A DNA stretch of 31,122 nucleotides, from positions 1 through 31,122 of IMG/VR virus record IMGVR_UViG_3300045988_093071; one strand, given 5' to 3'. Below the pieces are notes generated by a model. The model was not told the origin of the DNA. It made no database searches and worked only from the letters and a program-made list of their open reading frames with translations. This DNA is from a virus. Below, piece by piece: positions 1 through 31,122 of this stretch (its first letter is position 1; every line of letters starts with the position of its first letter). A program made the translations under genes and the position numbers.

Positions 1-55
1 CAACTCCTACTTTACAAGAGAAACATATAACAATAGATAAAAACCTATCAATGAC
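1..55. repeat. Terminal overlap: 1-55 is identical to 31068-31122 (circular closure of a 31,067-bp genome)
   Basis: Direct comparison of the first and last 55 nt gives an exact match. An ORF is continuous across the junction. Confidence 0.95.
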
Positions 56-878
56 TGAAGTTAAACCTGATGCTGGCTATCAAGGTTTATCAAGTATTGA
101 AGTAGATGTAGAGATTCCAGTTGAGGAGCATAGAGAAGTTACTATTACAGAGAATGGAACTACAATGATTCATCCTGCAGATGGATATGATTATATGGAG
201 TTTATTGATGTAACTGTTAATGTTACGAATCCAATGAATACCTATGATATTACACAAGCTGTAGTTAATTTATATAGGTTTACGGGAACATCTGTTCCTG
301 CAAATGTTGTAGGTTGAGAAAATTTAGTTGATGGAAGATATAAATGTCAAAGATCAAAAATTAAGGAGTTCACTATGCAATTGCCTAAATTAGAAGATGG
401 CAGATATATGTTTACAGAATGTGCTGATTTAACATCATTCACTATTCCAATGCCTGAATTAACAGATGGGTCTAATATGTTTAGCAGAGGTACCTTATCT
501 GGATATAATAGCCTGAAAACACTTAATTTAGACGCTCCTAAATTAGTAACTACTACTAATATGTTTGGAGATTGCATTAGATTAACAGATGTAACATTAA
601 ACATTCCATCATACACATCTCAAGAAAGTTCAATAAATCCTATATTTTCAAAATGTAGTGGAATTACTAATCTTACAGTAAACGGTGAGCTTAGAGCAGG
701 ATTATATCTATCAGCAAGTACCAATCTTACTACTGATTCTTTAATGTCTGTTATTAATGCATTAGTTGATTTAACAGGGGAGAATAGCAAAACTTTAACA
801 TTAGGAGCTACCAATCTGGCAAAATTATCAGATGAACAGAAAGCAATAGCTACTAATAAAAACTGGATATTAGCATAA
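1..878 (+). CDS. BspA-type leucine-rich-repeat (LRR) virion / receptor-binding protein, copy 1. This is the 3' part of a 395-aa gene that starts at 30758 and crosses the circular junction. In-frame TGA at 315-317 is read as Trp.
   Basis: Track ORFs 51..317 and 375..878 share a frame and are separated only by TGA. The frame is open from nt 1 and continuous with 30758..31122. The read-through peptide ENLVDGRYKCQRSKIKEFT mirrors the next LRR unit PKLEDGRYMFTECADLTSFT. The N-terminal half has four ~36-aa repeats (..P[DA]xGY[DQ]xM..V.V.V). The C-terminal LSDEQKAIATNKNW tail is shared with the paralogs at 3418 and 5230. Confidence 0.8.
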
Positions 879-1099
879 TGGAACATTTACATATTGAGAC
901 TAGCATATTTATAAAGTTATACTCTGATGAAGGATATTTTATCACCTCATATAAAGAAGGTGATGATATTAAAGAGTATAGTGCATCAACTATTTTATAT
1001 TGCCCTTTAACCTTTGATATATCTATTTATAGGGTTATTGATGCAGAAACAAATGAAAGATATTTAAAAGAACAAGAGGAATCTTATAAAAATAAATAA
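878..1099 (+). CDS. 73-aa protein, paralog of 4346..4567 (possible fibre assembly or adaptor factor)
   Basis: ATG overlaps the upstream stop (TAATG). It shares YK..DIK.Y......CPL..D.......I..E.....YKEQ with the 4346 ORF, has the same length, and holds the same position between an LRR gene and a fibre gene. Confidence 0.6.
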   Translation: MEHLHIETSIFIKLYSDEGYFITSYKEGDDIKEYSASTILYCPLTFDISIYRVIDAETNERYLKEQEESYKNK

Positions 1100-1100
1100 T

Positions 1101-3416
1101 ATGGCAAACGAAACTGAAAAGACAATTCTTCCCTATCTTAATGTCCTTGAAGTCGAAACAATAGATAAGTCAAATGTGACTAAAGTTATTGTTATTGACA
1201 AGGATGATGAAGTTAAGGTTATGGATGGTTCTCAGTTAGGAACAAACAGTTATTTTGATATTCAAAATAAGCCTGAAATTAATGGAGTTGAGTTAAATGG
1301 AAGTATGACTTCTGATGAACTTGGAATTCCGTCAGTTGAAGGTGTTGATAATCAGATTACTGAGAAACTAGCTGACTATCCAACTAAAGAAGAGGTAACT
1401 GCAGAGATTACTGAAGCCACTGCTGGAAAGCAAAATACACTTGTTCAAGGTGATGGTATAGTAATTGAAGAGAATACTGTTTCTGCAGATTATAATACTA
1501 TTCGTAACAAACCATCTTTAAATGGAACTGAATTATCTGGAGCAGCTTCAATAGTACCTGCCATTAATATTCAATCAGTCCCATCTAAAGTTACTTTAGC
1601 TCCTGTATTTGGTAATCAAACTGGAGAAGCAGTTGAACTTCCAATATATAATACAGAGACTAATCAAGCTGGTATGGTTAATGGTCCTCTATATGCACAA
1701 TTAACAGATAAATATACCAAAGCTGAAATTGATGCTTTAAATACAGCTATTAATAAAGAGATAGCTTCAAAACAGGAAACGCTTACAGCAGGAAAGAATA
1801 TATCTATTATAGATAATGTAATCTCTGCTTTTGAGAATCATTTCTTACTTAATTTAGATGAGAATGATCCTGTAAGACAGAAACATATCTATGACTTTAT
1901 TAGAACTAATCTGGACTTCTATTTATTCTGCCAGATTACATATAAAGGTGATATTATAGTTATTCCTGTTGCAACTATTGAACATCCTGAAACTATTGAT
2001 TTATATGGTTATTATTTCCAAGATAATGGTGTATTAGTAGTTATTAATGCAATCTTAGTAAATAATGGTAATATGACTGTTAAAGTTACTGAGGTTGATC
2101 TTACTAATAAAGGATATACTAAAGAAGAAGTAGATGCCAAACTTGAGGAAAAACAAGGAGTATTTACTCCACAAGCTCCATTAGCTTTTAATGAAGATAA
2201 ATCCCAATTATCTGTAGATTTATCTGGATACCAACCAGTTGGTGATTATGCTTTAAAGAGTGATATCCCAACTAAAGTTAGTGAGCTTACTAATGATTCT
2301 AACTTTGTAACTGAAGCAGAGGTTTCTGGAGATTTAGCAGGTAAAGCAGATAAGACTTATGTTGATGAGCAGCTTGCTACTAAACAGCCTGTAGGAGATT
2401 ATGCAACAAAAACAGAACTTGCTGGTAAAGCTGATTCTTCTGTGGTAGAATCTTTATCTACTCAAGTAGCAACTAATACTTCAGATATATCAATTATTAA
2501 AACAAAACAAGAAGAAGATGGAGATAAGATTGATTCTCTTGATAAAGAGATGGCTACTAAGCAAGATTTACTTGTAAGTGGAACTAATATCAAAACAATC
2601 AATAGTCAGTCTTTACTTGGAGAAGGTAATATAGAAATTGAAAGTGGCTCTAATATTCCATTTCTATTTATAAATTCCACTACTCATCTTTCTGGAGATT
2701 TCGCTGCTGTTAAGAATGCTATAGCTAATAAAACACCATTTGAGCTTTATTATGTAAATATTCTAGGTTATGGTGATATAGCAGCTCCAGAAGTATGTTT
2801 TGTTTCAGGAGAAAATATTCAAGCTACATTCCATTTTGAATCTGGCACAACTAATCATACTTTAGTTACTGCTCAGATTACTCCAACTGGAGTTTCTGTA
2901 GATAAGAGTTACCATAATTATCAAGAACAATTAGTCTCTGGGACTAATATAAAGACTATTAATGGTGAAAGTATTTTAGGAGAAGGTAATCTTGAAATAT
3001 CTGGTAGTGGAGGGACTACCGATTATACTCAGTTAACAAATAAACCTCAGATTAATTCTGTTGAACTTAGTGGTAATAAGAGTCTTGAGGATTTAGGTAT
3101 ACCAACTAAGACATCTGAGCTTACTAACGATAGCGGCTTTTTAACTTCTATTCCTGATGAATATGTTACAGAAACTGAATTAAATGCAGGATTAGGAAAT
3201 AAACAAGACACTTTAGTTAGCGGAACAAATATTAAGACAGTTAATGGAGAAAGCTTGTTAGGTAGTGGAAATATAGATATTGAGAGTGTTTCTAATCCAG
3301 TTACTTATGGAAGTGGAACTCAACCACAAGTTCATACTATTCTTGTGGTAACTCAGTCTGAATATGATGCTATTTCAAGTAAAGATCCAAATACTCAATA
3401 TTTAATTGTAGAGTAA
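1101..3416 (+). CDS. Long tail fibre (771 aa) with internal repeats
   Basis: Intact ORF. It has three copies of LVSGTNIKT[IV]N[GS][EQ]S[LI]LG[ES]GN[IL].I (about nt 2571-2640, 2931-3000, 3213-3284) and three NKP.[IL]N[GS].EL.G motifs. Fibre-type motifs LSVDLSGYQPVGDYA and SELTNDS[NG]F are present. The protein contains no Trp. Confidence 0.75.
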   Translation: MANETEKTILPYLNVLEVETIDKSNVTKVIVIDKDDEVKVMDGSQLGTNSYFDIQNKPEINGVELNGSMTSDELGIPSVEGVDNQITEKLADYPTKEEVTAEITEATAGKQNTLVQGDGIVIEENTVSADYNTIRNKPSLNGTELSGAASIVPAINIQSVPSKVTLAPVFGNQTGEAVELPIYNTETNQAGMVNGPLYAQLTDKYTKAEIDALNTAINKEIASKQETLTAGKNISIIDNVISAFENHFLLNLDENDPVRQKHIYDFIRTNLDFYLFCQITYKGDIIVIPVATIEHPETIDLYGYYFQDNGVLVVINAILVNNGNMTVKVTEVDLTNKGYTKEEVDAKLEEKQGVFTPQAPLAFNEDKSQLSVDLSGYQPVGDYALKSDIPTKVSELTNDSNFVTEAEVSGDLAGKADKTYVDEQLATKQPVGDYATKTELAGKADSSVVESLSTQVATNTSDISIIKTKQEEDGDKIDSLDKEMATKQDLLVSGTNIKTINSQSLLGEGNIEIESGSNIPFLFINSTTHLSGDFAAVKNAIANKTPFELYYVNILGYGDIAAPEVCFVSGENIQATFHFESGTTNHTLVTAQITPTGVSVDKSYHNYQEQLVSGTNIKTINGESILGEGNLEISGSGGTTDYTQLTNKPQINSVELSGNKSLEDLGIPTKTSELTNDSGFLTSIPDEYVTETELNAGLGNKQDTLVSGTNIKTVNGESLLGSGNIDIESVSNPVTYGSGTQPQVHTILVVTQSEYDAISSKDPNTQYLIVE

Positions 3417-3417
3417 T

Positions 3418-4344
3418 ATGAATATTCGAGATAATTTAAAAGCTTTTTATGTAGGTAACAGACAAGGTACTGCCATATATGTTGGCAGTACCAAAGTCTG
3501 GCCTATTGATCCTTGTAATCCTATAACCTTTATAGACCCAGAATTTGGAAGTCAAGTTAAAATGCATTTATTAGATGATAAACCTGTAACGGATTGTAAT
3601 ATAGACAGTGTAAAAAGCTGATATTATCCAAATTCTTTAAATGATTCTGCATTTACTGGTTCTGCTGTAGTTACTAACGAGGATTATAAAAAATTCAATG
3701 TTCCTGCATCTAATGATGATTATGTGGTATTTATGAGACTTTTTCAAAGTTGCGCCGATTTAACTACATTTGATACTGGAATGGTTGAAGGTGGAGAAGA
3801 TAAATTAGGATTGTTATACAATATGGGCGGTTTTTATTGTACATTACAAGGATGTACTTCATTAACTACTATTATAGGAGATTTTGATGGTTCTAAGATA
3901 TATAATTATAACTGGATGTTTGGAAATTGTAGATCTTTAATTACGGCTCCAAATATAACATTTCCTCATAGGGATTATTTAGTAACTCATACAGTTAATG
4001 TAAGCAGATTATTTGATGGTTGTACTTCATTAACCACCATACCTTTATATGATGCATATTCTTGGGAATATTTAAGTCTTACGTTTAATCGTTTATCTAA
4101 TTTAGAGAATGTTGGAGGGTTTAAAGATATAGGAAAATGCTTTACTACTAACTCCTTTGCTGGATTAAATTTTGAAGATAGCCCAAAGTTAACTAATCAA
4201 TCAGTACAGAATATAATTAATAATTTAGCTATTCCAAGAGAATCACTTGCTGGAGTTATAAAATTTGCAGAGAATGTTTACAATTCATTAACAGAGGAAC
4301 AAAAATCACAAATCACCAGTAAAGGCTGGTCAGTAACATACTAA
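3418..4344 (+). CDS. BspA-type LRR virion / receptor-binding protein, copy 2 (308 aa). In-frame TGA at 3619-3621.
   Basis: Track ORFs 3418..3621 and 3724..4344 share a frame with no TAA/TAG in the linker. LRR units F..C..LTT[IF] recur. The C-terminal YNSLTEEQKSQITSKGW tail matches copies 1 and 3. Confidence 0.8.
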
Positions 4345-5229: not shown

Positions 5230-6201
5230 ATGGCAAATACAATTTCTGATAAATTAACGTATCTTGAAGGTACTAAGAGTGCCATTAAAGATGCTATTGT
5301 AGCTAAAGGTGTTGCTGTATCAGATTCCGATACCTTTAGAAGCTATGCAGATAAGATAGGACAGATTTCTGGAGGTGGTGGAGGAAAGGTTAATTTAAAT
5401 GATTATGGATTAACATTTGCATATTCTAGTATGACACAAGAGCAATATAATAATATAGAATATTCTCTTCCAGATAATATAAATCATTGATTTGATGGGA
5501 CTAATTTCATATCTACAATAGATATATCAAGTCATATTGATCTGTCTAAAGTATATGACGCATCATATGCCTTCCAAAACACATATAATATATATATTGA
5601 TAATATAAGAACTAATGTTGGGGATTCGTACACATTTTCTGGATTTCAAGGCATACTAAATAATTTAGAATTAATTAATACCTTATCCTCTAGTTGAAAT
5701 TATGCAACAAGAACATTCTTTAATGCTTCTAATTTACCAACTACTTTAAAAGTGATAAATGAAGTTGATACTGGTGTATCATCTTTACAATTTTTCTTTT
5801 ATGCTGTTAGCAGTAATGTTCCTGAAATTGAAGTTATTAATGGACAACTGTCTTTATATAATTACTTTAGTTCATATAATGAGGGTGTTACAACAGTAGG
5901 AAAAATTAAATTAAATAATTGCACATTAACAGAAGATCTAAATAAAACTTCAATATGTGTATCTGCTAATACTATTGTTACTTATTTTGGGGGTGTTGAA
6001 GGAGCTGATAAAAGTATGAATTTAGCAAATTTTAGAGCACTAAATAGTCAATCAGTAACTGATATTATTACAAATGTTAGTGATTTAACTGGAAAGGATA
6101 CCAAAACTTTAACTTTTTATACTAACGTTTATAATGCACTTACTGAGGAACAGAAATCATTAGCTGCATCTAAAAACTGAACTTTAGCAAGTTCAAACTA
6201 A
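5230..6201 (+). CDS. BspA-type LRR virion / receptor-binding protein, copy 3 (323 aa). In-frame TGAs at 5488, 5695 and 6178.
   Basis: Track ORFs 5230..5490 and 5752..6180 share a frame and the linker has no TAA/TAG. The true stop is TAA at 6199-6201. The N-terminus KLTYLEGTKSAIKDAIVAKGV..DTFRSYADKI is typical of gut-phage fibre-like proteins. The C-terminal YNALTEEQKSLAASKNW tail matches copies 1 and 2. Confidence 0.8.
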
Positions 6202-6202
6202 T

Positions 6203-6252
6203 TGTCAGTTTTTATTTTTTCTTAGTACTTTGAGTGAGTAAAAAACTTGACA
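6203..6252. repeat. 50-nt palindromic element, copy D (TGTCAGTTTTT ... AAAAACTTGACA)
   Basis: It starts 1 nt after the stop codon. It has the same 50-nt length and architecture as the copies at 14164, 19289 and 27872. Both arms carry the same changes relative to the other copies (TGTAAC becomes TGTCA(A)G). Confidence 0.8.
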
Positions 6253-6354: not shown

Positions 6355-6747
6355 ATGAATTATACTCTATTAATGCAAAATACAACTACTAAAGAAGTTT
6401 ATACATTTGATCTTGAAAATCAGAATTATTCTGAGAATATCTACTATAAGTTTGATATTACACTTCAAGAAGGAATGAGAGACGGTGAATATCAATATAT
6501 TTTATTTACTAATCCAAATAAATTTCAAGTTATAGTTGATGTAAACAATCCATTTAGATCAGAGTTATATGGCAATCCAGTTATTCTGGTTACATATAAT
6601 AATACTCTTACTAATGGTACTCAGATATTAGTTGCTGGTAAACCAATACCTATATTGGGAACAGGATTAATAAGAATTGGAGATTATGAGAATAATAATT
6701 ATCAATACGACAAACCTAATACATACGTAAGTTATGAGCGAAAATAA
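6355..6747 (+). CDS. Hypothetical protein (130 aa)
   Basis: Intact ORF and first gene after the terminator. I recognised no motif. Confidence 0.5.
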   Translation: MNYTLLMQNTTTKEVYTFDLENQNYSENIYYKFDITLQEGMRDGEYQYILFTNPNKFQVIVDVNNPFRSELYGNPVILVTYNNTLTNGTQILVAGKPIPILGTGLIRIGDYENNNYQYDKPNTYVSYERK

Positions 6748-7825
6748 AACAAAAGTTCAGTTAAGTGCTATTGATCCATTTATTGCAAGTAATATCGTAT
6801 TACCTACAGAAACTAAAGTAAGAGGAAAAGATTATGTAATGTGAGGAGAAGATAATAAATATCCATTATATCTATGGGATCTATATTTAAATGTAGCTAC
6901 TCTTCAATCTATCATTAATGGTACTGCTGACTTTATTGTTGGTAACGATGTTAAATGTAATGCTCCAGGATTTGAAGTAGTTGTAAACAAGAAAGGTGAG
7001 ACTATTATGGATATTATGCGTAAAGTATCTAAAGATAAGATGATTTTTGGAGGATATGCTTTACAAATAATTAGAGATATGTTAGGTAGAGTTTCAGAGA
7101 TCTATCATCTTGACTTTATGAAGATTCGTTCTGATGAAAAGAATGAAGTATTCTATTATGCTGATGATTGGTCTGCTTGGTCTATTAAAGCTATCAAATA
7201 TCCAAAATTTAATTATTCAGATGATAATCCTACAAGTGTTGTTTATAATAAGGGTTATATAACAAGAAAAGTATATCCAGTCCCTGTTTATGGTGCAGCT
7301 ATCCTATCTTGCGAAACTGAGAAGAATATTAATGAGTTCCATCTAAATTCTCTTCATAATGGATTTATGGGCAATCTTATCATTAACTTTAATAATGGAC
7401 AGCCTACAGACGAAGTTAAAGAAGAGATTGAGATGAATATCAATGAGAAGTTCTCTGGTTATCAGAATGCTGGTAGAGTTCTTATTTCATATAATGATGA
7501 TGAAACAAATAAGACTACTATTGAGCGTTTAGATTCTGATGATTTTGATGAGAAATATAGTGCTTTATCTGATAGGACAAGAGAACAGATATTCTGCGCA
7601 TTTAGAGCTAATAGTGTACTTTTTGGCCTTAACTACTCAAGTGGATTCAACGAACAAGAATTTAATGAAGCTTTTAAACTTTATAATCGTACAGTAGTTA
7701 GACCAATTCAGGTCGAAATAGTAGATACATTTGATAAGATATTTGGAATGAAAGGTTCAATAACTATAACTCCTTTTAGCTTAACTCCAAATGGACAAGA
7801 AGATAGCAAACAAAATGTTGAATAA
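6734..7825 (+). CDS. Portal protein, PBSX/P2-like size class (363 aa). In-frame TGA at 6842-6844.
   Basis: ATG 6734 is in frame with track ORF 7007..7825. The N-terminal ..KYPLYLWDLYLNVATLQSIINGTADFIVGNDV.. resembles the conserved N-terminal block of PBSX-family portals. The family call is from memory. Confidence 0.6.
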
Positions 7826-8423
7826 TTATACTGTTTATTGCCATATAAATAAGTATAACAATAAGCTATATTTTGGCATTACTGGACAAAGTGTGCAAGC
7901 TAGGTGAAAAAATGGATATGGATACTCTACTCAAGCTTACTTTTATAAAGCGATACAAAAATATAGCTGAGATGGATTTGAACATATCATAATTAAAGAT
8001 AATTTACCAGAAGCTTGTGCTAAGACATTAGAAAGGATATTGATACATAAATATAAAACAAATACTCCTGAAAATGGTTACAATATAACATCAGGAGGAG
8101 AAGGTACATACGGGTATTCTTTTTCTAATGAGAGTAGAGCAAAAATGTCAAATTCTAAAAAAGGTAAAACACCCTGGAATAAAGGAAAGAAAGGAATCTA
8201 TACTTTGGAAACACTTATTAAAATTGGAAATGCTTCCAAAGGACGAATTACTAGAGTTAAGCCTATATTAAGATTTGATATGAATGGGAATTTTATTGCA
8301 AGATATAATTCAATGAAAGAAGCTGTTAAATCAGTTAATGGAGAACGTTCTGGATTATATTTAGCTTTAAAAGAAAATAGACCTTATAAAAACAATAAAT
8401 TTATTTATGATGGAACAACTTAA
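7815..8423 (+). CDS. Free-standing GIY-YIG homing endonuclease 1 (202 aa). In-frame TGAs at 7905 and 7968.
   Basis: It reads MLNNYTVYCHINKYNNKLYFGITGQSVQARWKNGYGY...KYSWDGFEH...NITSGGEG, followed by NUMOD3-like SxExRxKxS/GKxPWNKGKK repeats and a C-terminal DNA-binding-like tail. The start overlaps the portal stop by 11 nt. Confidence 0.85.
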
Positions 8424-9098: not shown

Positions 9099-9524
9099 AT
9101 GACCTACTATGAGATAATTAGCAATTTAAAAGCTTGTGCATTAGAAGAGCCAAACATCAATTTTGTAGGAAGTAAAGACATTTATGAGTTAAATAGCTTA
9201 CCAACTATTGAGTATAATGTGTTCTATATAACACCTAATACTTTTAGTGTAGATGAAGATACTATTACTTACTCTTTAAACCTATACTTCGTATCAAGAT
9301 GGGATGAGACTGATAACAACCAATTGGAGGAACAGTCAGCAGGTATGCTTGCACTGCAAAATATAATTAATCGTTTTAATAACCTATATCCAGAAGTTGA
9401 AATAGCTTATCCTTTAATTTATACTCCATTCTATCAAAAGTTCAAAGATATTACCTGTGGAGTGTTTGTTAGAGCTGATTTCCAAGTTGACAACACATTA
9501 GGCTTATGTCAAGACAGTATGTAG
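9099..9524 (+). CDS. Hypothetical virion protein (141 aa)
   Basis: Intact ORF ending in TAG, tightly coupled to the upstream gene. Confidence 0.45.
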   Translation: MTYYEIISNLKACALEEPNINFVGSKDIYELNSLPTIEYNVFYITPNTFSVDEDTITYSLNLYFVSRWDETDNNQLEEQSAGMLALQNIINRFNNLYPEVEIAYPLIYTPFYQKFKDITCGVFVRADFQVDNTLGLCQDSM

Positions 9525-10090
9525 TTTATATTCATACTTTTCCAAATGGGAAAAGATATGTTGGATTGACTACTCAATCAGTAAATAGTAGATGAAGAGG
9601 TGGAGAAGGATATAAAGATCAATTTGTTTATAAACCAATTAAAAAGTACGGTTGAAACAATATTAAACACACTATTTATTATGTAAATAGTGAATCAGAA
9701 ATGAAATATCTTGAAAAATACTTCTTTAGCTATTATAATACTACAGATTTAAGATTTGGTTATAATAGAACTGACACAAGTAATCATCCTATAGTTTCTA
9801 ATGAAACTAAAGTTATTATTTCTGAATTTGCTAAAACTAGAATAGGAAATAAAAATCCATTTTATGGTAAGCATCATTCGGAAGAAACTAAGGAATTAAT
9901 ACGCAAGAAAAATCAAAACTATGGAACTAAAGCTATTAGTCAATACACTTTAGATGGAAGATTTATAAAATCTTATAAAAGTATAAGATCAGCAGCAAGA
10001 GAGTTAAACATAACTTCTTCTTTAATATCTTCAGTTTTAAGTGGTAGGCAAAAACAAACTAAAGGATATACCTTTAAGTATAATATGTAA
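9506..10090 (+). CDS. Free-standing GIY-YIG homing endonuclease 2 (194 aa). In-frame TGAs at 9593 and 9653.
   Basis: It reads MSRQYVVYIHTFPNGKRYVGLTTQSVNSRWRGGEGY...KKYGWNNIKH, followed by NUMOD3-like repeats and a C-terminal AARELNITSSLISSVLSG helix-turn-helix. The start overlaps the upstream gene by 19 nt. Confidence 0.85.
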
Positions 10091-10747: not shown

Positions 10748-10909
10748 ATGAAATATTGGTTAAAATATGTAATTGCAGTAGTTATTATTCTGCTGATATG
10801 TTTACTAATCAAAGTAATTCCTTTTTGGATTACTGTAGTATTACTTGTAATAGGTGTGGCTTCACATCTATTTTATAGATATGTTATGATTAAAGATATA
10901 CTTAAATAA
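10748..10909 (+). CDS. Holin candidate (53 aa, two TM helices)
   Basis: It reads MKYWLKYVIAVVIILLICLLIKVIPFWITVVLLVIGVASHLFYRYVMIKDILK. It lies immediately upstream of, and overlaps (TAATG), the endolysin gene. It is below the ORF-track size cutoff. Confidence 0.55.
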   Translation: MKYWLKYVIAVVIILLICLLIKVIPFWITVVLLVIGVASHLFYRYVMIKDILK

Positions 10910-11933: not shown

Positions 11934-11943
11934 TAAAAAAGAA

Positions 11944-11969: not shown

Positions 11970-11971
11970 GT

Positions 11972-12112: not shown

Positions 12113-12113
12113 A

Positions 12114-12248: not shown

Positions 12249-12250
12249 AA

Positions 12251-19288: not shown

Positions 19289-19338
19289 TGTAACCTTTTT
19301 ACTCATATTTGGTACTAAGATAATATAAAAAAGTTACA
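19289..19338. repeat. 50-nt palindromic element, copy C
   Basis: TGTAACCTTTTTA ... TAAAAAAGTTACA starts 1 nt after the -1-frame stop codon. Confidence 0.8.
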
Positions 19339-22093: not shown

Positions 22094-25000
22094 ATGAGAA
22101 AGAATATTAAATTATTTATTGCAAATAAAGAGGTTGACTGTAGTGAGGGAATTAGTCTTCCTATAACTTATACAGTTGAGGATTTCCAAAACCCCACTAT
22201 AGTCAAGAACTCGTTTAGTAAGACGATTTCTATACCTGGTACCAAAAATAATAATAAGATATTTGGAGAAATCTATAAATTAGATAGATTACAACATATT
22301 GAAGACGGTCAGTTTAGCGGTATTAATTTCAATCCTTCAAAACGAGTTGATTTTGGAATCTATGATAATGGAGATTTAATAGAATCTGGTTATATGCAAT
22401 TAAATACCATACAAATTAAACAGAAGGTCATTACATATAACATTACTTTATATGGAGGCTTAGGAGATTTCTTCTATGGGCTTAAATATAAAGAAGATGG
22501 ATCATTAAGAACTCTTGCTGATTTACAATACTTTATTACAGATGAGGAAGGTAATGTTTTACCTGCTGATACTGAAATGGATTTTTATATTAATAAAGAT
22601 TTTGTAAATAAATCATTTAATAATTATTGGAATAGCGACTTTACTACATTAGATAGCTTTGTTGGATTTATTCCTGCATATAATGGTTTATATGAGAATT
22701 TTGACAATGAAACTTGTTTAATAAATACAGCAGGAGACACTCTATTTCCCAAATCTGCAAGCGATGGAGGAACAACATATACTCCATATAATGGTTATGC
22801 TTTAGCACAATTAAATAGAGCTTATACAGAATGGGAAATAAGAGACTTACGCAGTTATATGCAAAGACCAGTGTTAAAACTTTCTAAGCTTATAGAAACT
22901 ATTTGTAGAAAAGAGAATTCTGGATATGATGTAATATTTGATGATTACTTCTTTAATTATGCAAATCCTTATTGGAGTAAATCATTTGTAGCTCTTCCCT
23001 TGCTTGGAAGTAGTGAAGATGAAGAATCAGATTCTATTAAAGAGAACGCAAAGCTTATTAAATATGGAGCAGATAACTGGTGGGTAGGATTAAAACCTGG
23101 AGGAACAACAACTTCATATAATTGAGGATATACTTCTGTTGATGGCAGCGAGGTAATAGTTCCTGGAGAAGGAAATATTATTGATTTATCTGCAACACCT
23201 GCTAATACTTTAGTAAATATCTCAATGGATTTTCAGGTGTTCTTCAATGCTAATGCTAGTTCCTCTGCAAATAATCTTTATTTATCATATGTACGCAATG
23301 GAAAAATGGGAAATACTGAGTATCATAATGATCCGTATAGAACATCTTTAACTGTTCAGATACTTGTATATAATGCCGATGATGAATCTGTTCCATCTAA
23401 ACCTATAGCATATTCTCCATTGTATAATTTTACAAATAAGATTAATACTCAAGTTCAAGCTGGACCATCTACTTGGTTTAATTATTATCCTCTTACTGAT
23501 GCTCCTGTTGAGGCTATTTATGGCCATTTTGTTAAAGATAGTGGGCAGAGGTACTATTTTAAAAGTGATACGGGAAGCAATACCTTTAGATTTGTAGTTA
23601 AAGATATGCCAAAAGTAAATAAGATAAGGGTGTCAATTCAATTTGCCAGAAGAACAGAAAGTCTCTATAATCAAGATGCTTTATGGATTTCAGATAATAT
23701 GAACCCAAATAATGTTACTGCATCAAGAGTAGCAGGATGATCTGAATTTTTATATGATTCAGATCAATATACATTAATTGCAAGTTGGCCATCGGCTGTA
23801 ACATCTGATGCTCTTATTACTAAGCAGAAGCTTTTAAAGACAGAATCTACACCTGCGGATTATTTACTTAGCTATGCTAAAATGTTTGGATTATATTTTA
23901 TTAAAGATATAGATTCCAAAACTATTAGAATATTTACCAGAAACAACTTCTTTAAAAATAAGATAACAGATTGGTCTAAACGAATTGATTATTCAAAAGA
24001 TTTTTCAGTTAATCCATTATTATTTGATAAGAAGTGATATACTATGAAACAAGAAGCTCCTGAGACGTATTATGCAAAGAAATATAATAAACAGTATGAT
24101 ATAACTTATGGGCAACAGAGATTAGATACAGGATATAATTTTAATAGTGATAATACAGATTTATACTCAGATAACTTATATGAAAATGTAATATCTGCAA
24201 GAGATGTAGATAAGTATTATAGAAACTATTTTAATAGTTCAAGTTCACCTGTTCCTTGCTTCTTAAATGATAATATTACTTATCAATTATTCCATTCTAC
24301 ATCTACTGAAAGAAAAACAAACGATCAGGATCTTTATGGAGTAAATTTCATTGATTCATCTAAGACTACAGAGTGGTGGGATGTTCCTGGTAATGATATA
24401 TTTGCAAAGACTTGTTTCTATTCATTAGATAATGATGAGCAAAGTTTAGAAGAAATTAAATCGACATTACTGTTCTATAATGGCAATGTAGAGATGAAAG
24501 ATATTGATGGAAATCCTATTACATATTGGATTACTGATGATGTTACAGAAATGTCTGTATTAAATGATTCTGAACCTTGCTATTTATATACTACTAGAGA
24601 AACTAATGAAGCTGGTGCTAAGATTGCAATTAAAAGAACCTCTTTACCACAATTCATAAGATATAATATATCAAGTAATTATGTAATATCTAGTTGGGAT
24701 TTTGGATTACCAAGAGAAATTTATATAGATAAAATTGCATATCCAGAACAAAGTGTTATTTATTCTCAATTCTGGAAAGAGTTCTATACTGATCAATTTG
24801 ATGTTAATACTAAGAAAGTTACTTGTTTTGTAAAATTAAATGATTTACAAGTAAACTTTGATATGTTAAGACAATTTTATTATTTTGAAGATAGTTATTG
24901 GGTATTAAATAAAATAGATGCTTATGATGTTAATTCTGATGCAACTACCAGATGTGAATTTATAAGAGTTCAAGACATCAATAATTATATAGGAGGAGTA

Positions 25001-25543
25001 TCTACTTTAGGTAAATACATAGAAGTAAGTGACCCAGAAGTTACTGTAGGGTATGAAGCTGGAAGTAAAGTTGTAACTATAGAATCTAATGTTCCTTGGA
25101 AAGTTAGTTGGTATAATAATTTGAAGATTACAAATATTTCACCAATGGAAGGATTACCTGGAATTAGTACTATGACTATTGAATATAATGAAAATCCTAA
25201 ATATATTGAAGATAACTTCTATTTAAGTTTAGTAGCTCAATCTGATATTTATGAAAGATTAGGACAAGTATATTTTTATCAAACTCCTGATCCATCTAAA
25301 TCAGTAAAGCTTTCTGGAAAAGTAACAGATGCAGATGGTAAAGTATTAGATGTACAACCTTATATCTATGTAGATAATGACAACTTTGTAGATAGTACAT
25401 ATTGTGATGCAACAACTGGAGAGTACTATTTATATGTTCAAAAAGGAGTTCCATTCCATTTTGAAGTACAATTATCAAGTGTTGTTAAATATGAGGAAGA
25501 ACTTACTTTAAATGCAGATACTATTAAAAATATTACTATTTAA
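22094..25543 (+). CDS. Very large tail tip or baseplate protein (1149 aa) ending in BACON-like and CarboxypepD_reg-like domains. In-frame TGAs at 23123, 23738 and 24035.
   Basis: Track ORFs 22094..23125, 23225..23740 and 24044..25543 share one frame with clean linkers. The C-terminus reads ..VTVGYEAGSKVVTIESNVPWKVSWYNNLKITNISPMEGLPGISTMTIEYNENP.. and then ..LSGKVTDADGKVLDVQPYIYVD..DATTGEYYLYVQKGVPFHFEV.. Confidence 0.7.
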
Positions 25544-25545: not shown

Positions 25546-27861
25546 ATGGCTGAAGAAATTAAAAAGGTAATAGATATAGATACTACTAAAAGTACAAAGT
25601 CAATCAAGCAGCTACGAGAACAAGTAGCTGGCTTGACTGACGAACTTGAATCATTGGAAATTGGTAGTTCTGACTATTCCAAAAAACTTGAAGAGCTTGT
25701 AAGTGCACAAAACAAGCTTAATGTAGCTACTGAATCTATGCAAGGTAAGACTGTAAATGCAGTTAAAGCTTTTGATAGTATTAACCAAGTAGCTGGCGGT
25801 CTTGCAGGTGGAGTTTCGGCTGTAAGTGCTGCATTTACTTTATTTGGAAGAGATACAGAGAATCTCCAGAAAACTATGGTTAAGCTTCAAGCAGCTATTG
25901 CTATAGTTCAAGGAATTGGAGGATTAAAGGGTTTAGGTGAAGGTGTTCTTAATGGAGTAAAATCATTTAAGGCTTTATCTGTTGCGATGGCTGGTGCTAC
26001 GACTGCTACTGGAGGTTTATCTGTTGCGATGGGAGTGCTACGAACTGCTATTATATCAACAGGTATTGGAGCATTAGTAGTAGCATTAGGAATGTTAGTA
26101 GACTTTGCAATCAAAGCAGCATCTGGAGTTGATGATTTAAAAATTAGTATTTCAGGGTTAAAAGACATAACAGACCAATGAGGAACTAGCTATGCACAAG
26201 CTAATACAGAAATTGCAGGATTAGAAAGACAGAGAGAAAGAGATTTAGCTGAAGGTAAAAAGAATGAAATACAAATCTGAAAGGATTATGCTCAAGCATT
26301 AGGTGAATTAGATGCTAAATTATTCCAGCAATTTGGAAGTGTAACTAAAGCATATAATGATTCATTTACAGATATACTTAAGAGTAATAAATACTTCAGA
26401 AAAGAGTTTAAGAAATCTGGATATGACACTTGGGAGGAGTATTCACAAGCTATACAATGAGGATTAAAAACTAGTTCTAATGAAGTTGATTTCTTTTTAA
26501 GTAAGTTAAATGATGATCAAAGAGCTGCTTACGACGAAGCTTCTGGTATCTACAATGCATATATAGAGAAGAGAAATAGTTTAATGCAGAAAACTTCAGA
26601 AACTTATGAAAAGATTAAACTGATGGAAATCTCTGCAGAGCGTAAAGCCAGAGAAGAGGCTAAGGCTAACTATCTAAAGAATATTGAAGATGCAAAGAAA
26701 CGTAACGCTGATTTACTGAAGGTTATCAATGATTTCTATGAAGAGAATAGAAAACTGCTATTAGATGATGAAGCTAGAGAGTTAGATGAATTAAATACCA
26801 AATATCAAAATCAATTAGATGCTCTTAAAACAGCTAAAGATAAAGAGCTTATAACAGTTGAGGAATATAGAAAGAGATTAAAGCAAATAAATGATGCTTA
26901 TGATAAAGAGTATCTAGACAATCAGAACGAGCGGTATCGTAAAGAAATTAATAATAGAATTAATTCTTTAGAACAACTTAGAGAACGAGAGAATAGATTT
27001 TTTGATCAAAGGCAATCTGAGTTAGATACTAAATATAATAAGACATATACACATAATGCAGGTCTTGGAAACGAATACAAGACTGCGGGAGATATAAAGA
27101 GTGAAAAGAACGATAGAATAACACAATCTAATGAGCTACTTGAAATACAGTTAGGATTCTACGAAAGAGATAATAAAAGAATTGGAGAATTACAAACCAC
27201 TTTAAAAGAATCGTTTGATAATGGCTTAATAACTCAAGAAGAGTATAATAATGAGTATGCAAGATTAAATGCAGAAAGAGAAGCAAATGATACTGCTGCT
27301 GCAAATGCTATTGTAGCTAATGGAGAAAAAATAAAGGCTGCTAAAAAAGATGAAATTAAAGACATTGTAGCTGCTGTTCAAGGAAGTTTTGCTGCATTAG
27401 GAAGTTTAGGTGATGCTGTAGCTCAAAACTATAAATTTGAGGCAAATAATTCCAAGAAGTCATTAAAGGAGAGAGAAAAAGCTATGGAAAATTATAAGTC
27501 TATAGCTAAAATATCTACCGTATTTAATACCGCTTCTGCAGCAATGAATGCTTATAACTCTATGGCAGGAATTCCAGTAGTAGGTCCTGTATTAGGTGGT
27601 ATTGCTGCTGCTGCAGCTATTGCTATGGGATTACTTCAAATTAAAAATATTGAAAATGAAGAAATATCTGGTAGTGATGTATCATCTTCAGTATCCGCTC
27701 CATCTGCACTTACACAAGCTCCTGTTGAGTATACTCGAAATTTACTTGGAAATAAAGAGACTGATGAACTTAATAATCCAGTTAAGTGTTATGTTGTTGA
27801 ATCTGATATTACTTCAGCTCAAACTAAGGTAGCAGTTACTGAATCTAATGCTTCATTCTAG
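25546..27861 (+). CDS. Tape-measure-like protein (771 aa; coiled coils plus Gly/Ala-rich hydrophobic segments). In-frame TGAs at 26179, 26278 and 26458.
   Basis: Track ORFs 25546..26181 and 26584..27861 share a frame with no TAA/TAG in the 400-nt linker. Features are long heptad-like segments, GGLAGGVSAVSAAFTLFG and IPVVGPVLGGIAAAAAIAMGLL hydrophobic blocks, and a TAG stop. Confidence 0.5.
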
Positions 27862-27871: not shown

Positions 27872-27921
27872 TGTAACTTTTTTATTCTTATTAACTACAA
27901 AATATGAGTAAAAAGGTTACA
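27872..27921. repeat. 50-nt palindromic element, copy B
   Basis: TGTAACTTTTTTA ... TAAAAAGGTTACA lies 10 nt after the TAG stop. Its loop is nearly identical to that of copy A (CTACAAAATAT[TG]AG). Confidence 0.8.
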
Positions 27922-27973: not shown

Positions 27974-28567
27974 ATGGAAATTACTTATAATGATCTTCCA
28001 TTATTTCAGGCAGTGATTACTGATGATTGTGATGGAATAGAATATGTTGCTTTAACAAGCAAACCAGCTACACAAGTTAACTGGGTTGCTTTTAGTAATT
28101 CTCAGAAGTTCTCGATGGATGAAGATAAGCATTTAGTAACATCTTGCTTAATGTTAAGTGATACTCCAATTTTCAGACGAGATGAGAAACTCGGAGAATA
28201 CTACATACAGTATGATAAGGAAACTCTTCGTAAAATGGCAGAGAAGATGCTGTATGATAAGAGAACTACAGATGTAAATATTGAACATTTAGAAGATTCT
28301 GATTTAAATGGAATTACTCTACAAGAAATCTATGTAAAGGATATTAATAGAGGAATATCTCCAGTTGAATTCCAGGATGTTCCTGATGGTTCTTTATTTG
28401 CCACTTATAAAGTAGATAATCAAGTTATTTGAGATGCAATTAAAGCTGGTAAGTTTAAAGGGTTCTCAATTGAAGGTTTATTTACTTTAGAGAGAAAGTC
28501 TGATGAATATGACGAAATAAAAGAGATCCTTAATATGATTAAGAAGATAAAAAGAGTTAAACATTAA
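27974..28567 (+). CDS. XkdF-like prohead protease candidate (197 aa). In-frame TGA at 28430.
   Basis: The N-terminus reads ..GIEYVALTSKPATQVNWVAF.. After the TGA it reads ..VIWDAIKAGKFKGFSIEGLF.., the W..[IV]K.G...G.S[IV].G block typical of the PBSX XkdF family. It lies upstream of the scaffold and capsid genes. Confidence 0.6.
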
Positions 28568-28580: not shown

Positions 28581-29183
28581 ATGAGCAAATTCACAAGAAT
28601 CAAGCTTGAATTGGCTAAAATGCTTGCAAAGTTCAGTGATATTAAAACTGATAAGGCAGTACTTACTTGGGATTCAGATGAAGACTTACGCGCTGGTATG
28701 GATGTATATGTTCAGGATGAGAACGGAGAATACAAACCTGCTGAGGATGGTGAGTATGTAACTGAGGATGGAAAGACGATTGTTGTTAAAGACGGTAAAG
28801 TAGAGTCTGTAACTGATCCTAAAGCTGAGGTTGATCCAGAAGAAGCAGCTAAATCAGAAGTTGATGCTGCTTGTGGGAAACGCAAGGTAGAAACTGCTGA
28901 AGAGCCAGTTGATCCTGAAGTAGCTACTGATGGTGACAAAGAAACTGTAACTGATGCAATTGATGCAATTCATCGCGAAATTAATGAGCTTTATGACATT
29001 GTTGATAAGCTTGTTAAGAAAGTAGCTGAATTAGAGGGTAAATCTGAAGCTACAGAAAAGACGGTTGAAAAGATGAGCAAAATGAGTGCTGCATTTTCAG
29101 CTGAGGAACAGATAGAAGGTAAAGCTTCAATAATGACTGGCAATCCTGTTATTGATAAAAAGCTTAAAAACTTTATTGGTTAA
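28581..29183 (+). CDS. Scaffolding protein candidate (200 aa, acidic, coiled-coil)
   Basis: It is Asp/Glu-rich with a helical C-terminus (EINELYDIVDKLVKKVAELEGK), contains no Trp, and lies directly upstream of the capsid gene. Confidence 0.55.
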   Translation: MSKFTRIKLELAKMLAKFSDIKTDKAVLTWDSDEDLRAGMDVYVQDENGEYKPAEDGEYVTEDGKTIVVKDGKVESVTDPKAEVDPEEAAKSEVDAACGKRKVETAEEPVDPEVATDGDKETVTDAIDAIHREINELYDIVDKLVKKVAELEGKSEATEKTVEKMSKMSAAFSAEEQIEGKASIMTGNPVIDKKLKNFIG

Positions 29184-29205
29184 TTATTAAATTATTTATA
29201 AAATT

Positions 29206-30111
29206 ATGGCAAATAGTCCTGTAATGACTAGTCTTACTGCTTATGTAGAGCAGAGACGTCTTCCTCTTATTAAAGAGGCTGTATTAAAGGCTAAGAGTGC
29301 TTCGTTGTTCAATCTTCAAACTGACATCAAAACTAGTGCTGCTCTTAACCTGTTATCAACTGCTATTCAGTTTGGCGATGGCCTAGCTTGTGGTTGGGAT
29401 GAAGCTGGAACTCAGACTCTTTCTCAGAGAATTCTAGCTACTGGTAATATTAAGATCAATATGGCATATTGTGATAAAGAGATGCTTAAATACTGGACTC
29501 AGTATCAAGTACGAGTAGCTGCTGGTCAGAAGACGCTTCCTTTTGAAGAGGATTTCGTAAATGCAGTAGTTGAGAATGTTAAGGCTGCTATTGAGACTGC
29601 TATTTGGCAGGGTGATACTGCTTCTGAAACAAATAACCTGAAGTATTTTGATGGTCTGTTAAAGATCCTTGGTGCTGCTGATGGGGTTGTTGATGTAGTA
29701 ATTACTGGAGCATCTGCTTATGATGACATTATGGCTGTTTATAACGCTATTCCTGAGAAGGTTCTGGATGGTGCTTCTATCTTAGTTGGCAGTGATACTT
29801 TCCGTAAATTTATCCAGGAGTTAGTTGCTAAGAACTACTACCACTATAGTGGTGAGAATCTTAATGGTGAGATTATGCTTCCTGGTTCGCAGGTTAAAGT
29901 AATCGCTGTTAATGGTCTTAATGGAACTGATAAGATTGTTGCTGGTCAGTTAGATAAGAACTTCTTCTATGGTTGCGATATGATGAACGATGAAGAGAAG
30001 TTTGAATTGTGGTATTCACAAGATTTCCGCGAATTTAGATTAGCTATTGAATTTAACGCTGGTGTACAGGTTGCATTCCCTGATGAGGTAGTTCTTGGTG
30101 CCAAAGCCTAA
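29206..30111 (+). CDS. Major capsid protein candidate (301 aa)
   Basis: The call rests on its position after the protease and scaffold genes, its more GC-rich and biased codon usage, and its size and pattern (..LPFEEDFVNAVVENVKAAIETAIWQGD..), all typical of HK97-fold capsid proteins of gut phages. There is no in-frame TGA. Confidence 0.65.
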   Translation: MANSPVMTSLTAYVEQRRLPLIKEAVLKAKSASLFNLQTDIKTSAALNLLSTAIQFGDGLACGWDEAGTQTLSQRILATGNIKINMAYCDKEMLKYWTQYQVRVAAGQKTLPFEEDFVNAVVENVKAAIETAIWQGDTASETNNLKYFDGLLKILGAADGVVDVVITGASAYDDIMAVYNAIPEKVLDGASILVGSDTFRKFIQELVAKNYYHYSGENLNGEIMLPGSQVKVIAVNGLNGTDKIVAGQLDKNFFYGCDMMNDEEKFELWYSQDFREFRLAIEFNAGVQVAFPDEVVLGAKA

Positions 30112-30149
30112 TTTCAATAGAGTTTAACTTTAAATAAGATTGAAATTAT

Positions 30150-30674
30150 ATGGCTTGTTTAATAACTATCGCTGGTATTACCCTGGATTGCGAATCTTCG
30201 CTTGGTGGTATCAAACAGGTATGGATTACTCAGTACGATAATGTTAAGAGTGTAACTGTAGATGATGAGACTAATCAAATCTCAGCTATTACTCTTGAAT
30301 CAGATGCTAAATGGTATAATTACCAATTCCGCAAAGGTACTGGTTCTCTAACCTCAACATTGAACGTTGACGAAACTGCAGGAACCAACTATGTAAGTAA
30401 TGAGCTTGCTCTTGTATTTACAAAGATGGAGACTAAGAAAAGAATCGAGATTGCTGCTCTTTCTATTGGACAACTTGTAGTTGTTGTAGAAGATTCTAAT
30501 GGCAAATACTGGTTCTTAGGAAAAGATGACTATGTAAGCGCTTCCGCTGGTACGGGTGTTACTGGTACTGCAAAAGGTGATCAGAACGCTTATACGCTGA
30601 CTTTAGCTACTGACTCTGAATCATATCCTTATGAGTTGAGTGCTGAAGCTATTCAAAGTGTTGTAGGTGCTTAA
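30150..30674 (+). CDS. Tail tube-like or head-proximal structural protein (174 aa)
   Basis: It is co-expressed with the capsid gene and followed by a strong terminator. The pattern C..SLGGI..V.....F.F.KGTGS......G.....L.L.F......I..L..G.L.V.V.D.NGKYW.LG resembles siphovirus tube proteins. This is uncertain. Confidence 0.4.
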   Translation: MACLITIAGITLDCESSLGGIKQVWITQYDNVKSVTVDDETNQISAITLESDAKWYNYQFRKGTGSLTSTLNVDETAGTNYVSNELALVFTKMETKKRIEIAALSIGQLVVVVEDSNGKYWFLGKDDYVSASAGTGVTGTAKGDQNAYTLTLATDSESYPYELSAEAIQSVVGA

Positions 30675-30683
30675 CAACAGAAG

Positions 30684-30718
30684 AGGGGCGAGTATTAATT
30701 TACTTGCCCCTTATTTTG
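30684..30718 (+). terminator. Intrinsic terminator after the capsid/tube operon
   Basis: GGGGCGAGTA-ttaatt-TACTTGCCCC is a 10-bp stem with one G-T pair, followed by TTATTTTGTTT. Confidence 0.8.
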
Positions 30719-30757
30719 TTTATGGACAGATAATTAACTATTTATATTTTATAGAAA

Positions 30758-31122
30758 ATGGCTATTAAATATACAACACCAGAAGTGGCAAAGAATACAA
30801 CTTCAAGAGATATTGAAGCTTTAGCTGCTCAAGAATGTAAATTACAGGAGAAGTCTGTAGAATATACTCAGAATGCTGAGTTCGTTGTAACTCCAGATGA
30901 GGGTTATGATGGTATGTCGAAAGTAAATGTATCTGTTGATGTTGTTGTTCCTACAGTACAAGCTACTAAAGAGATTACAATTACATCTAACGGATTAATA
31001 GATATTTTACCTGATCCAGATTATGATGTTATGGAGAAGGTTTCTGCACAAATAAATGTTCCAGTACCAACTCCTACTTTACAAGAGAAACATATAACAA
31101 TAGATAAAAACCTATCAATGAC
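30758..31122 (+). CDS. 5' part of LRR protein copy 1 (continues at nt 56 -> 878 through the circular junction)
   Basis: ATG 30758 follows the 18-nt conserved start context. The frame is open to the window end and in phase with nt 3 onward at the start of the window. Confidence 0.8.
   Translation, partial: MAIKYTTPEVAKNTTSRDIEALAAQECKLQEKSVEYTQNAEFVVTPDEGYDGMSKVNVSVDVVVPTVQATKEITITSNGLIDILPDPDYDVMEKVSAQINVPVPTPTLQEKHITIDKNLSM
31068..31122. repeat. Terminal overlap, second copy (identical to 1-55)
   Basis: Exact identity to the first 55 nt of the window. Confidence 0.95.

Follow-up and report, generated by a model that had tools for sequence, protein, structure and literature searches.

Phages that read a reassigned stop codon have been described from gut metagenomes, where small recoded clades of 22 to 34 kb recode 26 to 71% of their genes and a suppressor tRNA is present in 35% of the code-4 genomes, in which TGA is read as Trp (Borges et al., 10.1101/2021.08.26.457843). 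Cook et al. reported a Sup-TCA tRNA in 15% of code-4 phages and 46 code-4 viral operational taxonomic units in UHGV (PMC11210395), and in these two studies 65 to 85% of predicted code-4 phages are without a detectable suppressor tRNA (10.1101/2021.08.26.457843; PMC11210395). In the Dutch cohort of Gulyaeva et al., 21 TGA-recoded contigs were found among 58,776 (PMC9610469). Where phage and host share a code, the recoded stop occurs in about 90% of genes. The stretch analyzed here comprises the 31,122 bases (30.6% GC) of IMG/VR virus record IMGVR_UViG_3300045988_093071 and is referred to as the window. It comes from an uncultured tailed phage of gut and rumen metagenomes and is, with near certainty, a complete and circularly closed 31,067-bp tailed-phage genome in which TGA encodes Trp, 35 TGAs spread over 21 of the 40 genes being sense codons and no stop other than TAA and TAG being used.

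Closure of the genome follows from its identical ends, positions 1..55 being an exact 55-bp repeat of 31068..31122 (an assembly overlap or terminal redundancy), which leaves a unique length of 31,067 bp. Read with TAA and TAG as the sole stops (code 4), the window resolves into 40 abutting genes with 10,031 codons, which make 95.4% of it coding; 36 of the genes lie on the plus strand, and the other four (g18, sA, sB, and sC) form a unit on the minus strand. The three small genes of that unit, sA (~70 amino acids), sB (44 amino acids), and sC (~47 amino acids), are conserved, lie downstream of the helicase-like gene g18 within 11972..12508, and had been missed by a cutoff of 50 amino acids for open reading frames (ORFs). 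Gene g01 crosses the window end: its true start, at 30758, lies 310 nt short of where the unique sequence ends, and the product has 396 amino acids rather than 275, with four repeats of ~30 amino acids at the N terminus. The 40 genes include no integrase and no polymerase, and the noncoding total of ~1.4 kb consists of promoter-like sites, terminator hairpins, and palindromes.

The 40 genes contain 35 in-frame TGA and 83 TGG codons and no in-frame TAA or TAG, compared with 72 and 100 TAA or TAG codons per 1,000 codons in the other two frames of the same genes, a difference that rules out chance. Stop-to-stop ORFs cover 80% with code 11 and 94% with code 4, a comparison of tables that the preliminary description of this DNA had proposed, and code 11 would shorten 21 genes to 5 to 86% of their length. 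Gene ends are 33 TAA and 4 TAG among the 37 genes tallied, and the three small minus-strand genes likewise end in TAA or TAG. The same description had counted about 35 in-frame TGAs, had stated that every gene ends in TAA or TAG with TGA never needed as a stop and with TGG used in parallel, and had estimated that the standard code would break about 20 genes. All of this held on recounting, the last figure becoming 21; the absence of TGA stops extends to all 40 genes, and one of the 35 TGAs lies in the previously unlisted gene sA (complement of 12347..12349). The fragment pairs that it had joined as interrupted by TGA only were also recovered with the same boundaries, the TGAs being at 315, 3619, 5488, 17796, 19601, 21127, 23123, 23738, and 26179.

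The residue encoded by TGA was examined by translating TGA as X and tabulating the residues that homologs carry at those columns, using relatives from three scans of IMG/VR, with the major capsid protein (MCP), terminase, and portal, that returned >100 loci on >40 related contigs. At 34 of the window TGA columns, distinct orthologs of the clade carry TGA 498 times, TGG 262 times, Phe 26 times, Tyr 20 times, and Gly 15 times, 13 of the 15 Gly codons coming from one variable column; at the 35th, in sA, relatives carry TGA 16 times and TGG twice. The TGG columns of the window show TGG 1,687 times and TGA 524 times in relatives, and TGA and TGG interchange at 32 of the 35 TGA columns. Viewed from the other side, the TGAs of relatives face a Trp of the window in 588 of 788 cases, with Trp accounting for 1.1% of aligned residues. 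In-frame TAA or TAG codons in relatives amount to 2 per 240,000 aligned codons. A noncircular test is provided by 14 more distant relatives with 0 or 1 in-frame TGA among the aligned codons. At the window TGA columns these TGA-free relatives have Trp 41 times, Tyr 12 times, Phe twice, and Gly never (n = 68), and their residue profile at TGA columns is the same as that at TGG columns. The preliminary description had named Gly at the TGA columns as a check on its reading, and the result argues against code 25.

Several protein families place the TGAs on conserved Trp residues, as the preliminary description had claimed, and the positions it quoted (7905, 7968, 9593, 9653, 11296, 17796, and 28430) are all correct. 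For the M15 peptidase, translated with X at the TGA, 1.8 billion representative proteins were searched without an index and 141 alignable homologs were obtained, in which the column of TGA 11296 is Trp in 117 of 129 and opens a W-x-H motif, being followed by Val, Ile, or Leu and then by a His that is present in 122. In g10, the GIY-YIG Pfam domain becomes detectable only when the TGAs are translated as W. The XkdF-like protein g34 reads through TGA 28430 as Trp, with a Pfam score that rises from 30.5 bits with X to 36.4 bits with W (+5.9) and with Trp at that column in 13 of 13 TGA-free relatives. The two halves of the large terminase (TerL) are joined by TGA 17796, the Terminase_6N model spanning residues 49 to 243 of g27 across TGA codon 199; at this column, TerL homologs have W 53 times and F 65 times. 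TGAs located 3 to 6 codons before a gene end (g07 codon 317, g17 codon 186, and g29 codon 101) align with TGG in relatives and are therefore sense codons too. The one in g07, at 6178, follows Lys-Asn and aligns with the C-terminal KNW of g01 and KGW of g04, both of which use TGG. The reading frames across the TGAs are conserved in dozens of independent assemblies. Searches of PDB sequences with the M15, GIY-YIG, and helicase proteins gave no match or gave alignments that fell short of the TGA columns. On this comparative evidence, TGA is Trp (code 4) and neither Gly (code 25) nor stop.

The use of TGA is graded. TGA accounts for 35 of the 118 Trp codons of the window (30%) and is present in 21 of 40 genes (52%). 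Its share of Trp codons was also counted by gene class over distinct sequences of the recoded clade; these counts are pseudo-replicated by relatedness and are descriptive. The share is 1% in the helicase g18 (1 TGA to 92 TGG), 7% in the head genes (portal, g11, g12, protease, scaffold, MCP, and g37), 41% in tail and fiber genes, 44% in packaging and lysis genes (endolysin, 43%; terminase, 45%), 53% in the small plus-strand genes, and 69% in the homing endonucleases, the highest class. The MCP family has 1 TGA to 184 TGG. The Trp columns of TerL flip freely between TGA and TGG and those of MCP never do, indicating that TGA is not neutral in high-copy genes; selection acts against TGA both in the head genes, which are high-copy, and in the superfamily 2 (SF2) helicase. 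This avoidance in the most highly expressed genes suggests that TGA is decoded more slowly or more leakily than TGG. Sense TGAs are found in both transcription units, in g20 (22 of 24 relatives) on the plus strand and in sA behind the helicase on the minus strand. The earlier claim that the phage is "recoded throughout" thus stands as far as both transcription units are concerned but not as regards extent, only 21 of 40 genes and 30% of Trp codons being involved and the capsid genes and helicase avoiding TGA clade-wide. The base following sense TGA in clade orthologs, again in pseudo-replicated counts, is a purine in 80% of cases, T in 16%, and C in 4%, compared with 67%, 24%, and 9% after TGG, a shift that could reflect competition with release factors or merely amino acid context.

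The features of the window are given below, with the positions of sense TGAs and, where counted, the codons or residues that relatives have at those columns.
51..878 (start at 30758), plus strand: g01, BspA-type leucine-rich repeat (LRR) tail or receptor-binding protein; TGA at 315 (TGG 7, TGA 5)
3418..4344, plus strand: g04, LRR paralog of g01 and g07; TGA at 3619 (TGA 8, TGG 5)
5230..6201, plus strand: g07, LRR paralog; TGAs at 5488, 5695, and 6178 (column of codon 317, TGA 26, TGG 5)
g01 to g07 together: three BspA-type LRR proteins and two fiber proteins
6734..7825, plus strand: g09, portal (Pfam Phage_portal); TGA at 6842 (TGG 32, TGA 10, Tyr 6)
7791..8423, plus strand: g10, GIY-YIG/NUMOD homing endonuclease; TGAs at 7905 and 7968
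9506..10090, plus strand: g13, GIY-YIG/NUMOD homing endonuclease; TGAs at 9593 and 9653
10090..10746, plus strand: g14, protein with an N-terminal membrane segment; TGAs at 10129 (TGA 25, TGG 6) and 10690 (TGA 25)
g14 to g16 together: membrane proteins and the M15 endolysin
10909..11361, plus strand: g16, Peptidase_M15_3 endolysin; TGA at 11296, on the conserved Trp of the W-x-H motif
11364..11933, plus strand: g17, GIY-YIG-like/NUMOD homing endonuclease; TGAs at 11679, 11736, and 11919
11940..11975: terminator-like hairpin after g17
11972..12121, minus strand: sC, downstream of sB
12114..12248, minus strand: sB, downstream of sA
12251..12463, minus strand: sA, small conserved gene; TGA on the complement of 12347..12349 (TGA 16, TGG 2)
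12411..14129, minus strand: g18, SF2 (DExH) helicase-like protein; 4 TGG and no TGA
14288..14319, minus strand: Bacteroidota-type promoter-like site, TTTG-N20-TATCTTTG, directed toward g18
14377..14408, minus strand: second Bacteroidota-type promoter-like site directed toward g18
14457..14488, plus strand: Bacteroidota-type promoter-like site directed toward g19 and the plus-strand genes
14773..15210, plus strand: g20, second gene of the plus-strand unit; TGA at 14845 (TGA 22, TGG 2)
15197..15688, plus strand: g21, HNH/NUMOD homing endonuclease; TGA at 15575
15973..16218, plus strand: g23, helix-turn-helix (HTH) or sigma-70 region 4-like protein; TGA at 16075
16212..16538, plus strand: g24, membrane protein; TGA at 16296
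g26: small terminase
17202..18485, plus strand: g27, large terminase; TGA at 17796, joining the ATPase and nuclease halves (TGA 34, TGG 5 in the clade)
18970..19287, plus strand: g29 frame; TGAs at 19138 and 19270
19406..19885, plus strand: g30, structural-module gene; TGA at 19601 (Trp in 6 of 6 TGA-free relatives)
19888..22092, plus strand: g31, tail or baseplate protein with a weak BACON match; TGAs at 19996, 20287, and 21127
22094..25543, plus strand: g32, large tail protein; TGAs at 23123, 23738, and 24035
25546..27861, plus strand: g33, tape-measure-like protein; TGAs at 26179, 26278, and 26458
27974..28567, plus strand: g34, XkdF-type prohead protease; TGA at 28430 (TGG 39, TGA 3)
28581..30674, plus strand: g35 (scaffold-like), g36 (MCP), and g37; TGA-free here and nearly so clade-wide

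The only large nonstructural protein of the genome is g18, whose family has invariant GxGGT, DExH, TAT, and QxxGRxR motifs and a Helicase_C_2 match in 8 of 28 members. Its AlphaFold2 model (pLDDT, 80) matches the folds of Mfd, DEAD-box proteins, and UvsW in Foldseek, and a nonhelicase identity was rejected, the model and the Foldseek search yielding only SF2 helicase or translocase folds. The neighboring gene sA is treated as one ORF because the codon after its TGA is not ATG in relatives. Four free-standing homing endonucleases are present in 31 kb, three of the GIY-YIG/NUMOD type (g10, g13, and g17) and one of the HNH/NUMOD type (g21). Genes g22 and g23 (15681..16218) overlap by 17 nt, and g23 matches models of sigma-70 region 4 and of HTH domains. 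Both products are small HTH/sigma-like proteins, and the pair may constitute a sigma-like or transcription factor of small size with which the phage serves its late genes. Genes g28 and g29 (18485..19287) show a -1 overlap at a run of nine T residues (18963..18971), with the g29 frame opening 32 nt upstream of the run. The run is kept in nine distinct relatives, down to 75% nucleotide identity, and the two frames are probably fused through a programmed -1 frameshift or transcriptional slippage. A 50-nt palindrome (TGTAAC-T6...A6-GTTACA) occurs in intergenic gaps at 14164..14213, 19289..19338, and 27872..27921, with a degenerate copy near 6202..6252. Its inner 26 nt are inverted in one copy, and the inner part is similar to the -7 box region of the promoters; the element may act as a late promoter or operator or may form a hairpin.

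GenBank phages were searched by megablast with 16.6 kb and by tblastn with the MCP, without a match, and TerL reaches at most 28% identity to them. Members of the family are frequent in a single very large data set of IMG/VR and also in several metagenomes of gut and rumen type. In a neighbor-joining tree of the MCP, the recoded genomes (the window clade, L036, L037, and L040) group together, and their sister clades have no in-frame TGA; the window phage arose within a family whose other members are without in-frame TGA. Nested inside the recoded group in the same tree is a 30.1-kb genome, L038/L140 (IMGVR_UViG_3300029905_000019), that also has no in-frame TGA. No TGA stops are present in the stretches examined of L038, L041, and L044, and two are present in L045. 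In L140, the early region of the L038 genome, two plus-strand ORFs end in TGA, which indicates that this phage reads TGA as stop; the region differs from that of the window in having no homologs of g18, g19, or g20. Either L038/L140 has reverted to the standard code or recoding was gained independently around it. This history fits the patterns described by Borges et al., in which TGA is depleted in low-GC relatives before reassignment and codes change over short evolutionary distances.

Two larger contigs carry related sequences. A 148.6-kb IMG/VR contig (IMGVR_UViG_3300045988_175865; loci L019, L070, and L120, positions 109860..148631) ends with a collinear copy of the phage, preceded by >9 kb of extra tail-fiber genes with collagen-like repeats and 31 TGA to 13 TGG. 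The possibility that it is a prophage in host DNA was rejected after 39 kb had been walked, the flank consisting of TGA-rich tail-fiber genes and not of host DNA, and the contig is probably a chimeric or concatenated assembly. Locus L139, on a 132-kb ENA scaffold (LEMO22-1_SAMN17215489_METAG-scaffold_71), is a prophage with a g18-like helicase and a Phage_int_SAM_5 integrase adjoining intact standard-code host genes. The prophage genes for terminase, portal, and capsid are full-length only when TAG is read as sense (code 15).

How the sense TGAs are decoded is not apparent from the gene content. ARAGORN finds no tRNA in the window, an Rfam scan finds none at E<=1, and a suppressor tRNA with a TCA anticodon is absent from all 115 related loci. 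A hidden suppressor tRNA was sought with relaxed ARAGORN settings (80 to 90% thresholds, introns, and mitochondrial models) and rejected as noise, the relaxed TCA-anticodon hits falling within genes and at a different site in each of three subclades. No release factor or tryptophanyl-tRNA synthetase (TrpRS) is recognizable among the genes, and no unassigned protein is large enough to be one. With none of these recognizable, translation of TGA must rely on something that is invisible in the sequence. A code-switch gene was also sought by presence and absence and rejected: L140 is without g18 to g20, but the recoded L036/L091 lineage is without a g18 homolog as well, and g20 itself holds a TGA. 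Decoding must be efficient, given that relatives have up to 10 TGAs in one gene, a tail-fiber gene, and it must carry some cost, given the avoidance of TGA in head genes.

Signals of the host come from promoters, translation starts, and the lysis gene. The sigma-ABfr promoter of Bacteroidota has TTTG at -33 and TAnnTTTG at -7 (PMC7366714), and the window was searched for this consensus as TTTG-N17-23-TAnnTTTG. All three matches are in a single 404-bp divergent intergenic region and are correctly oriented, one toward the plus-strand genes and two toward g18. In 18 distinct relatives the divergent region has 52 matches (3.9 per kb) compared with 16 elsewhere (0.05 per kb), and the boxes are kept while the spacer sequences vary. 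A Shine-Dalgarno (SD)-like core precedes 3 of 37 genes (8%), compared with 4 of 44 in Bacteroides phage B40-8 and 36 to 69% in Mycoplasma phages by the same test. G is scarce upstream of the genes, 69% of which have A at -3, and Bacteroidetes mRNAs have been reported to be without SD sites and A-enriched upstream of the start. From the M15 endolysin it follows that the host wall contains peptidoglycan, which argues against Mycoplasmatales, and a g18 homolog is found in a Hymenobacter chromosome beside a Phage_int_SAM_5 (Bacteroidota-type) integrase. The g18-like helicase of the L139 prophage and the weak BACON match of g31 are further signals that are consistent with these. A scan of 185,579 species genomes returned only two distant MCP matches (48% identity); Azospirillum sp. 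CAG:239 and a Bacteroidaceae bacterium were rejected as hosts, the links being short contigs binned into metagenome-assembled genomes and unreliable. The most likely host is a Bacteroidota bacterium with the standard code.

Taken as a whole, the data favor, with moderate confidence, a partial and graded recoding of TGA to Trp in a standard-code Bacteroidota host by a phage with no recognizable decoder of its own. The code of the phage would then differ from that of its host, making it an "alternatively coded" phage rather than a copy of a code-4 host. Candidate decoders would include a suppressor supplied by the host or by a co-resident element, the host tRNA-Trp(CCA) reading UGA with the aid of an unrecognized phage factor, and a noncanonical RNA. 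Several points weigh against this account. Sense TGAs in both units, including the second plus-strand gene and the gene behind the helicase, leave no clean standard-code early module that could install a switch, and for relatives with up to 10 TGAs per gene the simplest explanation is a host in which TGA is already Trp. The Trp assignment is drawn from comparative data, and the promoter and SD arguments for the host are indirect. The promoter pattern is not over-represented genome-wide (3 found versus 1.9 expected), so that the promoter argument rests on location and conservation, and the search for a host turned up no prophage copy, no CRISPR match, and no contig with host flanks. A stronger form of the claim, that a phage of ~40 genes makes a standard-code Bacteroidota bacterium read UGA as Trp efficiently without a phage tRNA, release factor, or synthetase, seems doubtful. 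If it were true, the decoding mechanism would be new for phages and might involve a small protein that disables release factor 2, a protein that changes host tRNA-Trp, for example through editing or modification of the anticodon, or a suppressor borne by the host or a prophage. The few unassigned genes would then make the family a minimal system in which to find it.

The most serious rival, though a weaker one than the standard-code Bacteroidota host and on balance unlikely, is that the host itself is a native code-4 bacterium and that the phage simply follows the host code, with no switch required. This would account for a complete genome that has no suppressor tRNA, release factor, or TrpRS and for the lack of a suppressor tRNA in the 115 related loci, for the absence of TGA stops from the window genes, for sense TGAs in both units from the second plus-strand gene on, and for relatives with as many as 10 TGAs per gene. 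Code-4 bacteria of 31 to 40% GC have recently been reported in mammalian stool (10.64898/2025.12.01.691617), and Cook et al. noted that many code-4 predictions may be host-matching phages (PMC11210395). However, an endolysin with a peptidoglycan peptidase makes wall-less Mycoplasmatales unlikely, and the promoters and starts are Bacteroidota-like in the face of a 2026 survey that lists four other phyla only, no code-4 Bacteroidota being known. The extent of recoding also differs: in the window TGA makes up 30% of Trp codons and 52% of genes contain it, whereas the corresponding values for the Mycoplasma phages MAV1, P1, and phiMFV1 are 77 to 95% and 81 to 93%. The strong gene-specific avoidance of TGA and the standard-code relative with TGA stops that is nested in the recoded clade are further points against a shared code.

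A second alternative, which appears improbable, involves no change of code at all: host tRNA-Trp(CCA) would occasionally misread UGA, and TGA would act as an attenuator that holds down the amounts of tail, lysis, and endonuclease proteins during bulk production of head proteins. In favor of this, the high-copy head genes have almost no TGA, genes with low-copy or potentially toxic products are enriched in it (endonucleases, 69%; terminase, 45%; endolysin, 43%), and no decoder is encoded. The base after sense TGA is mildly shifted away from T (16% versus 24% after TGG), and U at +4 is reported to strengthen termination (PMC5289835), but C at +4, the leakiest context, is depleted too. Essential structural proteins contain three TGAs, and 5 to 10 in relatives, so that read-through of a few percent per site would give a negligible yield.

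Less probable still is a phage-encoded suppressor that would escape ARAGORN and Rfam, either as a noncanonical RNA or as a tRNA that is split or lies within coding sequence. Borges et al. suggested the same for the 60 to 65% of recoded phages without a detected suppressor, and the conserved 50-nt palindromes in three or four intergenic gaps also count in its favor. The ~1.4 kb of noncoding sequence, however, is taken up by promoter-like sites, terminator hairpins, and those palindromes, the relaxed TCA hits are inside coding sequence at places that differ by subclade, and the Rfam tRNA model finds nothing at E<=1. The remaining proposal, that TGA encodes Gly (code 25) or another residue or marks true stops in a decaying or misassembled genome, can point to one column (g32 codon 549, with TGG 15 and GGA 13 in relatives) and is effectively refuted by the absence of Gly from the 68 residues of TGA-free relatives, its 15 occurrences among 396 non-TGA codons overall, the TGA-TGG interchange at 32 of 35 columns, and frames that are conserved across the TGAs without in-frame TAA or TAG.

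Any use of the genome requires the right code, as annotation under the standard code breaks 21 of the 40 genes, including those for the terminase, portal, endolysin, and protease and all of the large tail proteins. This TerL is already present in a public protein collection at its full length of 427 amino acids, with W at the TGA, showing that code-aware gene callers had already handled it. A well-sampled family with >40 related contigs is thereby added to the rare TGA-recoded gut phages, one that joins recoded members, a nested relative with TGA stops, and sister clades without in-frame TGA. If the host is a standard-code Bacteroidota bacterium, a small genome without tRNAs sharpens the question of how most recoded phages translate a reassigned stop.

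Comparison with described systems places the phage closest to the code-4 gut phages. The phages of Mycoplasma and Spiroplasma (MAV1, P1, and phiMFV1) share with it TGA as Trp, TAA and TAG as the only stops, no suppressor tRNA, low GC, and small genomes, but the window has a peptidoglycan endolysin, Bacteroidota-type promoters, and SD-like sites at 8% rather than 36 to 69% of genes. Code-25 phages of Absconditabacteria and Gracilibacteria likewise have in-frame TGA, no TGA stops, and no suppressor of their own; they differ in having TGA in about 90% of genes, and the TGA columns of the window are Trp, Phe, or Tyr and not Gly. With the crAss-like phages, in which opal or amber codons are reassigned, there are in common Bacteroidota-type host signals, low GC, a weak BACON-like domain, and reassignment in late genes (PMC11210395; 10.1101/2022.06.29.495998). 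Those phages are ~100 kb in size, typically carry suppressor tRNAs, and use codes blockwise, in contrast to the 31 kb, the absence of tRNAs, and the unrelated hallmark genes found here.

The code-4 gut phages of Borges et al., with the small clades Garnet, Amethyst, and Topaz, are likewise low-GC phages of gut and rumen in which TGA becomes Trp. Recoding is partial in both (52% of genes here, 26 to 71% there) and includes lysis and tail genes; close standard-code relatives exist, some with almost no TGA stops, and the likely host is a standard-code Bacteroidota bacterium. The absence of a detectable suppressor tRNA is shared with 65% of their code-4 genomes. Garnet and Amethyst, at 34 kb, are close in size to the 31 kb here. 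The phage differs in that the major capsid, scaffold, protease, and portal genes avoid TGA, whereas structural genes are generally recoded in the published clades, and in having no integrase and no clear standard-code early module. TGA is used in the genes for lysis, tail, and terminase and is absent from that for the helicase, yet the capsid genes are TGA-poor too and small genes next to both promoters carry TGA. The view that a small and recoded phage is unusual was overstated, recoded gut phage clades of 22 to 34 kb having been published (10.1101/2021.08.26.457843); the phage is in function a code-4 "alternatively coded" gut phage. Its main remaining interest is as a compact, well-sampled family without tRNAs in which to address how recoded phages read a reassigned stop.

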